DNA of 64,000 bases from Octopus vulgaris. Its lineage: Eukaryota. Under the pieces are notes generated by a model, which saw only the letters and a list, made by a program, of their open reading frames with translations, was not told where the DNA came from and made no database searches. The translations under genes were made by a program, and so were the position numbers. Below, in pieces: positions 6,860-56,691 of this stretch (its first letter is position 1; each line of letters starts with the position of its first letter). Where the stretch lies: positions 27,342,001 to 27,406,000 of the forward strand of contig OX597836.1 of NCBI GenBank assembly GCA_951406725.2. Direction: 5' to 3'.

Positions 6860-7283
6860 CATCTAATGTAGGATAACATTTTTCTAAAAAAAATTTTATC
6901 AATGGGCAGCATATCAAAAAATACCTTTAAAGGTTAAATTTATAAACAACTTATAAATAAGGCCAAACGAAAAAAATTTCATATGCCAAATATGCCGAAA
7001 CTAGACACATTGTCCATAACCATATAATTTATCACAATAAGCACGCTACTCGAAAAAGGTCGACAGAAATGTCTAAAAAATTTATCACTGACGAAGGGCA
7101 GGTTCTTATGAACCAACCCTGAAATCGGTCTGATATGGTAATAACGGAATTTTTAAGAAATTTCTGTTGACTTTTTTCGAGTAGCGTGCTTATTGTGATA
7201 AATTGTATGGTTATGGACAATGTGTCTTGTTTCGGCATATTTGGCATATGAAAATTTTTCGTTTGCCCTTATTTATAAGTTGT
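6860..7283. repeat. Penelope-like fold-back (arms ~6946-7082 / 7149-7283) with a hammerhead in the loop
   Basis: ~135-bp imperfect inverted repeat; the same family recurs at 55610-55895. Confidence 0.75.
7083..7135 (+). ncRNA. Minimal type I hammerhead ribozyme motif (canonical core)
   Basis: TATCA CTGACGA AGGG..GGTTC TTAT GAACC..CCCT GAAA TCGG TC TGATA. Stems I and II pair; stem III is near-palindromic (ATCGGT). Confidence 0.75.
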
Positions 7284-7381
7284 ATATATATATATATATA
7301 TATATATATATATATATATATATAGGGAGTGTTTTATATATATATATATATATATATATATATATATATATATATATATAT

Positions 7382-7560
7382 ATGCAAAATTTAGAGGATT
7401 GACCACTAAAAGTGGACAGCCTGTATGCTAGATAGAGACGTTAAAATCGCCATTTTCCACGGAGGATGTGTTCTCAAGAATCGTGGAAAATGGCAATTTT
7501 AACGTCTATATCTAGCATACAGGCTGTCCACTTTTAGTGGTTAATCCTCTAAATTTTGTA
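7382..7560. repeat. Fold-back, ~80-bp arms
   Basis: Near-perfect inverted repeat; the right arm continues as unique element sequence to ~7655. Confidence 0.8.
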
Positions 7561-8004
7561 TGTAAAAATTTTTTAATCTTCGGATGTTTCAAAATATGCT
7601 TGGCCACTGGTTTTAATTGATTAAAATATCAATTTCTACCCTTATTTAATTTTTATGTATATATATATATATATTATATATATATATATATATATATATA
7701 TATATATATATATATAGGGGAGTGTTAGGATCAAAACTGAACCTTGAGGCACACCTGAGTATAGGTGAGAAAGAGTGTGTGTGTGTGAGAGAGAGAGAGA
7801 GAGAGAGAGAGAGAGAGAGAGAGAGAGAGAAAGAGAGAGAAATGAGAGAAATATATATATATATACAGAGTGAAAGAGAATACAAGAGAGAGAGAGAGAG
7901 AGAGAGAGAGAGAGAGAGAGAGAGATCTTAGCTGCTACAGGTGTGAACTCACCTCATAGGAGACACACCACCCACCAACATTCATACAGGTGTTGTATAT
8001 TTAC

Positions 8005-8135
8005 CCTACAGCTATCCTGTCCAATGCCTTTTCGGTAAAGGCGTATTTGTCTTGGAATAAGTTGTTGAGGGCATGGAGGCCACACAGTGCTCCTCTCTGT
8101 TTCTCGTGGTAAATTCCGACAGCTGTTTGCTCCAT
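8005..8135 (-). CDS. JOSD1/2: Josephin-domain deubiquitinase, first coding exon ([44 protein letters not shown]); the full exon is probably 8407-8005
   Basis: IYHEKQ..LC.LHALNN.FQ is the Josephin N-terminal motif with oxyanion Gln and catalytic Cys. ATG at 8135 with an in-frame TGA upstream. Phase-2 donor GG|GTAAAT at 8005/8004. Polypyrimidine tract and TAG acceptor at 8408/8407. Confidence 0.9.
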
Positions 8136-8453
8136 CAGGCTGCTGTTTCTGTCGCATTCGATTTTGTTACACCATCTGATGATGTTGTGACGTTTCCTGT
8201 CGACGCCCACACGACGAACAGTTCATTGAGGTTTCATTTGTGTCGTTAAAAATATAGATTTTATAAACACATTCGAAGGCTTTCACAGAACCGGCTGCGA
8301 AAAGAAAAAGAACTGGTTTGTGCGAGTACTTGCTCATACAGGCCTTTTTTTCCCCTCCTGGTTTAAGACAAGTTGATGCTGCGAGATTCAATTGAAGATT
8401 GCAATAGCTATGGAGACAAAGAATAAAGATGAAATAATTATAAATTTACATAA

Positions 8454-52889: not shown

Positions 52890-53108
52890 TTTGTTTACTA
52901 ACCACAAGGGGCTAAACACAGAGGGTGACAAACAAGGACAGACAAACGGATTAAGTCGATTACATCGACCCCAGTGCGTAATTTAATCGACACCGAAAGG
53001 ATGAAAGGCTAAGTCGACCTCGGCGAAATTTGAACCTAGAACGTAACGGCAGACGAAATACGGCTACGCACTTCGCCCGGCGTGCTAACGTTTCTGCCAG
53101 CTCGCCGC
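52890..53108 (-). mobile_element. SINE family A
   Basis: Full-length copy within a (TA)n array. Confidence 0.85.
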
Positions 53109-53703
53109 CCTAATATATATATATATATATATATATATATATATATATATATATATATACATATATATAATATATATATATATATATATATATATATATA
53201 TATATATATATATACATACATACCTATAAATATATATATATATGGGTATATATATATATATATATATATATATATACATACATACCTATATATATATATA
53301 TATGTTTTTTTAAGTTCGTTTACAGGAAAGATTTTGAATATGCATATAGAAGCTTCTGTCTAATTATGCAGCTACAACCCAGGGATGTCAACTGTCGATA
53401 GCAATTTTTTGGGGTCGCATCGAGCTGTGCCGATATAATGTGAGATAAATATAGTAATAACAATAATAATCCTTCGATGGAATTCATAAATATTTTAATG
53501 CATTGCAACACACGTTTCTACAAATCACATATTTCTTATCCCTGGGATGATTACTGTGCAGTCCGTAGTATCAATGGACATCAGGTTTATTGTTGTTATT
53601 ATATATATATATATATATAATATATATATATATATATATATATATATATATATATATATATATATATAAGAGAGAGAGAGAGAGAGAGAGTAGCTAAAAA
53701 ATA

Positions 53704-54456
53704 GGTACACCTCTAAAAAATTTCAGCAAAATTGTCATTACTCTGATAACATCAAAGGAAATCAAACAAAATTGATATTGAATAAAATATATTCTTCATG
53801 CAAACATTATACAGATTTGAAACATGAAATAACTAAGATTTTCAAAGATATGAAGAAAATATTAGTTTTCAAACGTTACAAAAATATGTACACCCTAAAG
53901 GAAATTTGCTATGTTCAATATTTTATCCACTTTTCTTTTTATTTTACTAAATTCAGATATGATAATGACCCTACACACACTTCAAAGATAACGACTAAGT
54001 TTTTATCAGATAAAAAGGAAAAAGTATTGACCCCGACTACCATGTCACCTGATTTAAACCCAATAGAACATCTGTGGGGTGTTTTGAAAAGGAAGGTTGA
54101 GGACAAAAACCCCGCAATGTAATACAGTTGAAACTCATCACTGAGGATGAATGAAGGTCGATTTCATCGATTATGTGCAGAAGTTTAGTCGATTCTATAC
54201 CCAGAAGACTTAATATTGTCATTGAAACCAAGGGCGGTCACACCAAATATTGAATATAGTAAATAATCCTTTAGGGTGTACATAGTTTTGTATAGTTTGA
54301 AAATTAATATTTCGTTCATATCTTTGAAAATGTTTATTGTTTTGTGTTCCAAATGTTCGTATGTAGAATATATTTTATTCAGTATAAATTTTGTGGGATT
54401 GCCTTCAATATTATCAGAGTAATGGCAATTTTACTGAAACTTTTTAGGGGTATACA
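53704..54456 (+). mobile_element. Internally deleted Tc1 (DD34E-like) element with ~200-bp IR/DR-type TIRs
   Basis: DNDPTHTSK...SPDLNPIEHLWGVLKRKV...SIPRRLNIVIETKGGHTKY; outer and inner gtacaccc-ctaaa repeats at both ends. Confidence 0.88.
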
Positions 54457-56422
54457 TACTTCTGTGAGATACTCTACACATACACACACACATATATAAT
54501 GTGCGTATTTCTGTGATTTTCTCCCTCCCTCTCCTCACCCTAAATAAATACATACATACATATATACACATATATACATGTATATATATATATGTACATA
54601 CATACATACATACATACATACATACATACATACATATATATATATATATATATATATATATATATATATATATATATCTTGCACAGTCACTCACACAGTC
54701 TCACAGACATACAAAATTACAAAAGCACAGAGGTATTTCGCACAAGAAACGGAAGTGACACATGGAGAATACTCAGTTTATAATGTCTATCATAAACGGT
54801 GCAAACATACGGCAATATTGAAGTACATAGGGAACAATACAGTGTGTAAAGTGTAAACTAAATAAGGTGGCATAATTGAGCCAGGGAATACAGTGCTGGC
54901 TTAGAGACAAACTGTCGTCTGTTACCTTTGAACAGCGTTGTGTATGATAACAGGAAATATGGCGTACAGGGAAACAAACAGCACATTTAAGCGAAGTGAA
55001 GTATGCTGTTACAATGAAGCAATTTACATACACACAAACACACACACATACGCACTGAAATGCTCTAATGCTGTAGTTAAACCATATAATTGTATACATA
55101 TATACTGACAGGAACTATAATCGCCCGAAAACATCGATCGAGGGTTACAGTTCCTGTCAGTATATATTTGTATTATTATGTGCTTTGACTACAGTATCAG
55201 ATCATTTTAGCTCTTATTTCTAGCAATGTAAGTGTTTTTAACAGCCTAGTCACATTTAGTGACAATTACAGTTTTCCTGTTTGATTACACATTGCATACT
55301 GCTGTCTATATCAATTATATTATATATATATATATATATATATATATATATATATATATATATATATATATATATATATATATATATATATCCAGAGACA
55401 GCTATGTAAGTTTTTGAAGAAAAACGTGAATTTCTAGAACTGATATAATGAAAGATTCATTCAATTTATTTCAATTCATTTTCCTTTTAATTCAGTATTA
55501 CAAAGTTCTCAAAGCATGTTGATTTTTTTCTTTACAACATACATACATACATATATATATATATATATATATATATATATATATATATATATATATATAT
55601 ATATATATTTCATAAATGAGGGCAAAGGAAAAAAATTCTAATGCCAAATATGACGAAAAATTGGACATATTGTCCAATAACCATATAATACAATACGTAC
55701 GCTATTAGTAGCGTGAGTAAAAAATTATTTGGTTAATGGACAATATGTCCAATTTTTCGTCATATTTGGCATTAGAAATTTTTTCCTTTGCTCTTATTTA
55801 TGAATTGTTTATAAATTTAACCGTTAAAGGTATTTTTTAATATGCTGGCCATTGATAAAGTTTTTTTCGAAAAAAAAATGTTATCCTTTTAGATAATATA
55901 TATATATATATAATATATATATATATATATATATATATATATATATATATATATATATATATAATAGGCCTTACATTAGATATATATATATATATATATA
56001 TATATATATATAGAGAAATCATCAGAAGCTTCTGATGATTTCTCTTGAATGAACACATGCAGTTTCTATAGAATAGAATACTAGAGTGTTACGTGTAAGA
56101 TAGCAAACAGGAAAGAAATATGTATCGAACATAATTGTGCACATACGTTGGGAGTTACCAATACAGTTTAAATAAGCAGTTTGCTTTATATTTTAAACAT
56201 ATTGGTGTAGAGGACATACAGAATCAACACGGAACAGTAAAAATGTATCGAGGCGTACAGGAAAGACAACATAGCTAAAGAGACGAATAAAACAGCACAG
56301 TATTCAGGAATTTCATAGGCACAGCGTATTTCTACCAACACATCATAATTATATATATATATATATATATATATATATATATATATATATATATATATAT
56401 ATATATATATATATAATATAAA

Positions 56423-56691
56423 TGCAGCGTGGAAGGTGTTTGTAAGCCATTTAAGAAACACACAAAAGCCGTTCGATTCACTTCAACATTTAAGTTTAAT
56501 TTGTCAAAATATTTTCGTCGCTTTAAGACCGCGACCTGTTCACTGACAAAATCCGTGCTGCATTTTGTCAGTGAACAGGTCGCGGTCTTAAAGCGACGAA
56601 AATATTTTGACAAATTAAACTTAAATGTTGAAGTGAATCGATCGGCTTTTGTGTGTTTCTTAAATGGCTTACAAACACCTTCCACGCTGCA
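56423..56691. repeat. Near-perfect palindrome: 130-bp arms, 9-nt loop, 1 mismatch
   Basis: Arms 56423-56552 / 56562-56691. Confidence 0.95.
56564..56614 (+). ncRNA. Minimal hammerhead motif with G3-C8 core, family H3 (mirror copy on the minus strand at 56500-56550)
   Basis: TTTGTCA GTGAACA G GTCGC GGTCTTAAA GCGAC GAAA ATAT TT TGACAAA: 7-bp stem I, 5-bp stem II, palindromic AATATT stem III. Confidence 0.65.

Follow-up and report, generated by a model that had tools for sequence, protein, structure and literature searches.

Minimal hammerhead motifs with C-G, U-A and G-C pairs at positions 3 and 8 in Octopus vulgaris repeats of probable Penelope-like origin

Penelope-like elements (PLEs) carry minimal hammerhead ribozymes, which cleave weakly and do so as dimers (PMC4209133). 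This paper describes such hammerheads, of type I, in repeat families of Octopus vulgaris that are present in a 64,000-nucleotide stretch of its genome (contig OX597836.1, positions 27,342,001 to 27,406,000), which is called the window below and whose first letter is position 1. In the active hammerhead, C3 and G8 form a pair (PMC3884650), and in an anole PLE the single mutants C3G and G8C are dead, whereas the two changes combined (C3G/G8C) give partial activity; the PLE protein is needed there for cleavage, and cleavage is not needed for insertion in vitro (PMC11167929). Natural covariation to U3-A8 and tolerance of U10.1-U11.1 have been described (Perreault et al. 2011, PMC3088659), and the alignment of Schistosoma PLEs includes the U3-A8 cores UUGAUAA and UUGAAAA (Cervera 2014). 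Both U3-A8 in PLEs and large genomic hammerhead repertoires entered the literature in 2011-2014. PLEs are also known for copies that are inverted and truncated and for insertion at microsatellites (PMC8557442), and related literature is found in PMC6765202 and PMC6155905. The feature is confirmed in the octopus and represents the PLE hammerhead system already described, including its U3-A8 form. What appears, from its sequence, to be a new variant is a natural high-copy family with G3-C8, placed inside a clade in which all three pairs occur.

Pairing at positions 3 and 8 in the window and in the genome

A descriptor of the type I hammerhead was used in which positions 3 and 8 are unconstrained and, at the strict setting, stems I and II have at least 3 bp. 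It gave seven matches in the window (7088, 14066, 51826, 56571 and, on the minus strand, 32225, 32594 and 56543), all of them Watson-Crick at 3-8 (3 U-A, 2 G-C and 2 C-G), and 60 dinucleotide shuffles of the window gave on average 1.55 matches, 0.52 of them Watson-Crick, with a maximum of 5. The original prediction had named cores at 7088, 14066, 21908, 25668, 45779, 51826 and 56571, each of which is found at that position, together with a pair near 32 kb, which is 32225 and 32594; 56543, a second G3-C8 copy, is new. Three of the named copies, however, fail the descriptor and are degraded in the window, 25668 by a mismatch in stem I, 45779 by mismatches in stems II and III and 21908 by decay of its stems, although the majority sequences of their families do form the fold.

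These majorities were derived, family by family, from aligned copies at the 30 best-scoring loci of the 2.8-Gb genome, the aligned rows including some duplicates of one place or both arms of one insertion. The complementarity at 3-8 that had been claimed for each family is borne out in them, with the expected pair in 31/32 rows of the 51826 family (U-A), 43/44 of the 25668 family (C-G), 41/44 of the 45779 family (U-A), 33/36 of the 7088 family (C-G), 41/48 of the 56571 family (G-C) and 40/48 of the 21908 family (U-A). In addition, the majorities of all six families have U4 G5 A6 N7, A9, G12 A13 A14, A15.1-U16.1 and H17. Stems I and II reach 3-4 bp or more and covary between relatives; stem I of the 45779 family has only 3 bp, and that of a C3-G8 sister family described below needs a bulge or a wobble. 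A short palindromic stem III, of the kind that permits dimers, was said to be common to the families, and this is so for most of them (56571, 51826, 45779, 25668 and the L361 family described below). It does not hold for the 21908 family, the weakest and least typical case, whose majority has U.U at 10.1-11.1, a stem II of 9-10 bp, a 3-bp hairpin as stem III and A17, and the 7088 family fits two stem III registers, one of them longer and with A17; in both families stem III is longer than in the palindromic ones.

Pairing well above chance was also found outside the window. In an unbiased sample of 120 evenly spaced 10-kb stretches of the genome, 1.2 Mb in total, the strict descriptor gave 15 matches, 9 C-G, 4 U-A, 1 G-C and 1 G-G, that is, 14/15 Watson-Crick, as against 25.4% of all N-UGA-NN-A words that are paired at 3-8; a reversed-sequence control gave 1 match, and looser settings on the same sample gave 16/19 and 24/32 paired. 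A rough extrapolation from these 15 matches is about 35,000 strict motifs genome-wide (95% range 20,000-58,000). In a larger set of 1.97 Mb, consisting mostly of loci chosen by family, 167 matches (4 in the reversed control) formed 26 clusters, whose majorities were C-G in 16, U-A in 5, G-C in 3, A-A in 1 and C-C in 1, so that 24/26 clusters are Watson-Crick. Several of these clusters are U3-A8 families and one is a real G3-C8 family, while a family with good stems and a mismatched 3-8 majority was not found among the clusters examined. These counts support the view that the 3-8 pair has been under selection between families.

Three clusters were rejected as families: the C3-C8 cluster L194, since the majority of its repeat is without the motif; L074 as a second G3-C8 family, since other aligned copies read T or C at position 3; and the third G-C cluster, which is a single unrepeated match.

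A clade with three 3-8 pairs and the link to Penelope-like elements

The G3-C8 hammerhead at 56564..56614 has a 7-bp stem I, an extra G, a 5-bp stem II, GAAA, a palindromic stem III (AAUAUU) and U17, with the cut predicted after 56607. It lies in an element made up of two arms, a non-coding one that spans about 195 nt and has a constant 3' end, and an inverted one that is variably cut. The loci fetched are mostly head-to-head with a shorter inverted arm and often lie within (TA)n, some being single arms, and each of the 40 genome candidates that were scored is matched on both strands, which makes 80 matches; a scripted search outside microsatellites found target duplications of 10-13 bp at 3/18 tails. 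An inverted 5'-truncated copy, a fixed 3' tail and an AT-rich or microsatellite target agree with the description of PLEs (PMC8557442). A 21-mer holding the G3-C8 core has 5,711 exact matches in the genome (control 0), a number that counts arms, not insertions, and most genomic copies are decaying, as seen from 171 variants with another base at position 3 and 343 with G3 but another base at position 8 beside the intact ones. The core of the family is as variable as the remainder (0.043 vs 0.042), as is expected for decay after insertion. Furthermore, the family is present in the assembled contigs of all four of the sequencing runs used (4 of 21, one per organism code), contigs being unable to show RNA ends or expression, and no difference of at least 10% at position 3 or 8 was seen in these four sets.

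Two side observations concern the same family. Genome-wide, position 8 varies about twice as much as position 3, many of the listed changes being C-to-G transversions that often affect one arm only. In one instance only, at locus L250 (near 4164-4190), a G3-C8 arm lacks the sequence from loop II up to roughly the point where the cut is predicted.

The original prediction held the families to be unrelated, which is incorrect for two of them, as the G3-C8 family and the 45779 U3-A8 family are homologous. A profile of these two retrieved a third family, with C3-G8, from which 30 loci were taken. The 3' bodies align even without the ribozyme part (z 7.0 for G-C/U-A, 7.3 for G-C/C-G and 12.6 for U-A/C-G, vs 1000 shuffles), and the profile of the U-A family alone finds, at E<1e-3, 30/30 C-G loci and 9/30 G-C loci. 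The links of the G-C family are weaker, near the 99.9th percentile of random genomic stretches, with cross-matches at E 1e-3 to 1e-5. A tree was built from 37 of the 67 full-length arms; no more than 8 were taken from the query loci of any one family, the remaining arms were all retained, and shorter arms, L363 and L365 among them, were excluded. It resolves three lineages with or without the ribozyme part. Three lineages mean two compensated switches at 3-8, in either order since the tree is unrooted. Stem II also covaries across the three families (GUCGC/GCGAC, GUUGC/GCAAC and GUCAC/GUGAC). Body columns common to all three number 59/135, while nine core positions are invariant, for which the rough chance is 6e-4.

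With positions 3, 7 and 8 free, the scaffold of the clade has 13,355 matches in the genome (control 0). Counted by hand, the first 100 in the list, which come from a single contig, comprise 52 G-C, 28 U-A, 12 C-G, 0 A-U and 8 unpaired. An A3-U8 family was found neither among these 100 nor among the 26 clusters of the 1.97 Mb; among the first 100 listed non-G3 variants of the G3-C8 core there are four A3-U8 cases, about the number expected from independent decay. Older diverged relatives with other loops, L365 (G3-C8), L364 (G3-U8) and L363 (A3-C8), are each the same as G3-C8 or one transition away. At position 17 the G3-C8 family reads U and its C3-G8 sister reads C, a difference consistent with a G3-C17 pair being avoided (compare PMC3884650). 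It was not accepted as a general rule for N17 and N3, because U3 occurs with A17 in the L308 subfamily and in the 21908 family.

Loci L003, L007, L222, L227 and L230 hold two more families with the loop II letters CAAUA, one C3-G8 and one U3-A8 with near-identical copies. Their relationship has borderline support (score 103 vs a shuffle maximum of 101), and they are possibly a second case of a compensated switch. At L003 the C3-G8 copies stand in tandem about 360 nt apart, which looks retrozyme-like.

The link to PLEs that had been proposed is supported by GIY-YIG reading frames upstream of the hammerheads of two U3-A8 families. In the 51826 family, longer copies (L042 and L050) have PF01541 above the cut-off upstream of the hammerhead, and L044 has by eye a fragment like reverse transcriptase (RT), with no Pfam match. 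A PF01541 profile search of the genome gave 150 scored matches, and 19 of 30 fetched GIY-YIG loci have a further U3-A8 hammerhead downstream. The L361 family has both genes: at L361 (G000:C16:33682001-33688000) a stop-free frame of 781 amino acids at 1163-3508 matches RVT_1 (E 5e-06, under the cut-off) and GIY-YIG (over the cut-off), and the ribozyme core lies near 4382, about 870 nt after the stop. A PLE whose reading frame is unbroken thus has U3-A8 in its hammerhead. As further observations, L361 has a linker with CxxxxCxxC, a 333-residue frame overlapping the start of the 781-residue one and internal repeats in its 3' region, and many genomic GIY-YIG matches sit in open frames of 781 amino acids, which suggests a young family.

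Explanations of the 3-8 pair

It is probable that PLE terminal repeats, or repeats likely derived from them, carry these motifs as minimal type I hammerheads, that the motifs likely cut the RNA of their own element and that selection on the parent elements likely kept the 3-8 pair through the switches among C-G, U-A and G-C. Two RNA copies would pair via the palindromic stem III, probably with help from the PLE protein, and would be cut after N17. The G3-C8 family would be a non-autonomous derivative of 195 nt mobilised by a PLE RT-endonuclease at AT-rich sites; because no autonomous partner was found near it, its PLE origin is something that we infer. Parent copies may have been selected for a cleaving fold at the RNA stage, by which the pair would be kept, and after insertion the copies would decay, head-to-head ones being concealed in a long hairpin. 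With such decay and such hairpins, only a small share of the genomic copies could be working ribozymes. A more tentative extension, to which we give somewhat less than even weight, is that a PLE clade has flipped its catalytic 3-8 pair in nature and that the ribozyme of the G3-C8 family works and is, in thousands of copies, the first of its kind to occur naturally in a eukaryote, that PLEs tune their cleavage speed via the 3-8 pair in the series C3-G8, U3-A8 and G3-C8, and that U17 replaced C17 to avoid a G3-C17 trap.

Several results weigh against the main explanation. The evidence consists of sequence and predicted folds. A head-to-head transcript is predicted to form a hairpin of about 130 bp (-236.8 kcal/mol) that hides the ribozyme, which speaks against a large working repertoire, and the cis-dimer fold of the 32-kb tandem, at -63.0, lies 21.8 kcal/mol above the predicted minimum of -84.8. 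For cofolded monomers the stem III dimer is the minimum for L361 and not for 56571, 51826, 45773 and 7088, in a folding model that ignores core contacts. At a relaxed setting of the descriptor, 4/14 multi-copy clusters are unpaired (three A-G in microsatellites and one C-C) and there are 114 singleton matches, such a loose setting yielding false clusters. There is only one real G3-C8 family known here, and in it C8 is the most variable core position (7/51 arms, p ~0.15 after correction). Within the clade, the G-C profile at E<1e-3 finds 0/30 U-A loci and 3/30 C-G loci, an unrelated A-rich body scores 81.5 against the U-A body where the G-C body scores 91.5, and only two compensated switches are available, when random change at both sites gives a pair one time in three. 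Moreover, the sequence up to about 1.5 kb from 22-30 loci of each family revealed no autonomous partner, either for the G3-C8, 45779 and C3-G8 families of the clade or for the 7088, 25668 and 21908 families. Finally, mutants of the anole ribozyme did not lower insertion in vitro (PMC11167929). Beside L342 and L356 there are GIY-YIG fragments that look like separate insertions.

The anole result leads to the strongest alternative, namely that the fold is kept either as a signal that serves the PLE protein in binding or folding or as a ribozyme that is slow on purpose, and that the G3-C8 family cuts too little to matter. Besides the normal insertion of ribozyme-dead anole mutants, it is favoured by the lack of RNA-seq reads ending at the cut site in that work (PMC11167929), by the weak cleavage of metazoan minimal hammerheads in vitro (PMC4209133), by Naiad PLEs, which thrive without canonical hammerheads (PMC8557442), and by the only partial rescue by G3-C8 (PMC11167929, PMC8495972). 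However, crystal structures of minimal hammerheads do not show the 3-8 pair, which the active conformation does show (PMC3884650), so that a pair kept through switches points to the catalytic fold; the remaining core positions, too, are all invariant across the clade. We consider this alternative unlikely. The original claim that covariation implies selection for catalysis is to be divided: between families there is support for selection acting on the 3-8 pair, the clade itself offers just the two switches, and selection for catalysis is an inference that goes further.

Far less probable is that G3-C8 arose by chance double mutation in a dead ribozyme and was amplified by a non-autonomous element that did not need it. 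The variant is confined to one lineage, chance alone gives a pair in one of three double changes, an autonomous partner was not found and C8 drifts among the copies, all of which would suit such an origin. Against it stand the perfect 7-bp and 5-bp stems, the GAAA and the palindrome, both intact, the stem changes that this lineage has compensated and the older relatives L365, L364 and L363, all identical to G3-C8 or one transition off; and among the clusters examined no family with good stems has a mismatched majority. Accidental hammerhead-like stems in the palindromes of DNA transposons resembling miniature inverted-repeat transposable elements, which the inverted repeats of 4/6 families might suggest, are largely refuted and very improbable, since the stems are contained within one arm, the two arms differ in length, the tail end of one being fixed and the inverted one being cut at varying points, the target duplications of 3/18 tails measure 10-13 bp outside microsatellites, PLEs are described as leaving inverted truncated copies and as inserting at microsatellites (PMC8557442) and two U3-A8 families follow GIY-YIG genes. 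Hammerheads of PLE descent, with a pair kept by selection, therefore remain the explanation that we prefer.

Other features of the window and comparison with known systems

The window is rich in microsatellites and contains no PLE reading frame and no convincing long reading frame. Its hammerhead-bearing features are collected in Table 1, among them a third copy of the 14066 family that the original prediction did not list, and the tandem at 32 kb is the sole close same-strand pair of one family in it. Among 20 matches of the 25668 family in the unbiased sample, no pile-up of 5' ends at the cut site was found.

Table 1. Hammerhead-bearing elements and motifs in the window
Feature	Positions	Strand	Remarks
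Short non-coding PLE-type insertion	56420..56756		full arm of ~195 nt on + (56564-56756), shorter inverted arm on - (56550-56420), head-to-head, between (TA)n tracts
G3-C8 minimal hammerhead	56564..56614	+	core GUGAACA at 56571; descriptor match and family alignment
Second G3-C8 hammerhead, sequence identical	56500..56550	-	core at 56543, in inverted arm
GIY-YIG PLE 3' end (terminal repeat, pLTR) with U3-A8 hammerhead	51691..51945	+	hammerhead 51820-51862, core UUGACAA at 51826, C17
Head-to-tail tandem of 51826-type pLTR	32106..32724	-	369-nt period, U3-A8 cores at 32594 and 32225
Head-to-head element of U3-A8 family	45581..45905		core UUGAAAA at 45779 (+) and 45773 (-); both copies degraded, majority intact
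Inverted-repeat element with C3-G8 hammerhead	6949..7280		hammerhead 7082-7141 on + arm, core at 7088
C3-G8 minimal hammerhead family, copy 1	14011..14148	+	core at 14066, palindromic stem III, U17
Same family, copy 2	25613..25750	+	core at 25668, one stem I mismatch
Same family, copy 3	31814..31936	-	core at 31881, GAAA box mutated
Old inverted-repeat family with U3-A8 core	21801..21975		UUGAUAA at 21908

Further observations in the window are a C3-G8 hammerhead-like motif at 1672-1721 with a 6-bp stem I and a long stem III, which has no second copy in the 1.97 Mb examined, and tandem dimers, in opposite orientation, of a 184-nt repeat resembling a short interspersed nuclear element (SINE) at 5582-5949 and 9154-9524, which we take to be an octopus SINE. 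A near-perfect hairpin of 120 nt at 17335-17454 has sub-threshold matches to microRNA models and is likely a short inverted-repeat element, and 37803-38488 is 86% identical to part of L345, whose adjoining sequence resembles by eye a decayed Tc1/mariner transposase.

Three 146-nt stretches, one with a canonical C3-G8 copy, were matched by none of the Rfam hammerhead models at E values of 10 or less, and such a model is also absent from the 150 of 385 matches that were listed for the whole window. As the canonical copy is missed too, the minimal architecture also causes the miss, and not the 3-8 swap alone. The claim of a large repertoire overlooked by searches for CUGANGA consequently holds at the level of sequence, censuses based on this word undercounting by 80 of the first 100 listed clade matches, which are G-C or U-A, and needs the addition that the architecture itself escapes Rfam. 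In the passages searched of an octopus repeat annotation the words "ribozyme" and "hammerhead" are absent, and no study joining the hammerhead with octopus or cephalopods was found in literature listings. Literature searches likewise found no natural G3-C8, the mentions being all engineered (PMC3884650, PMC11167929, PMC8495972), within a scope that excludes Lunse et al. 2017, Przybilski and Hammann 2007 and the supplements of Perreault 2011, which could list it.

The C3-G8 pair is established by structure and by engineered double mutants, and a natural clade with three pairs is its evolutionary confirmation. In addition, the clade is a ready-made test set for what PLE hammerheads do, being dispensable for insertion in vitro. 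The finding establishes neither a new system nor a host function.

The closest known systems are the PLE hammerheads of Cervera 2014, which share with those of the octopus the layout, the extra nucleotide after A9, the palindromic stem III and the occurrence as thousands of mostly single copies with some opposite-strand pairs. The Cercyon U3-A8 variant of Schistosoma mansoni has UUGAUAA and UUGAAAA, the same as the cores at 21908 and 45779. The extra nucleotide, however, is H in that consensus and G in the octopus clade, and the portion of the alignment in supplement 2 that was compared has no G3-C8 core, unlike the 56571 family. Natural U3-A8 and U10.1-U11.1, as in the 21908 family, were described by Perreault et al. 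2011 (PMC3088659), where U3-A8 is the only natural 3-8 covariation named in the accessible text and G3-C8 is thus additional here. Non-LTR (long terminal repeat) retrozymes (PMC7229834; bioRxiv 10.64898/2026.07.22.740005) are also short non-coding repeats with type I hammerheads and a proposed PLE origin, but they are defined by head-to-tail tandems and circular RNAs, whereas the G3-C8 copies examined are mostly head-to-head or single arms, and the tandem pair at 32 kb is of an autonomous-type pLTR. The hammerhead of the Anolis Poseidon PLE (PAc; PMC11167929) resembles the octopus ones as a pLTR hammerhead of a PLE inserting at AT-rich DNA, and G3-C8, which is a laboratory mutant in PAc, is in the octopus the majority sequence of a genomic family.

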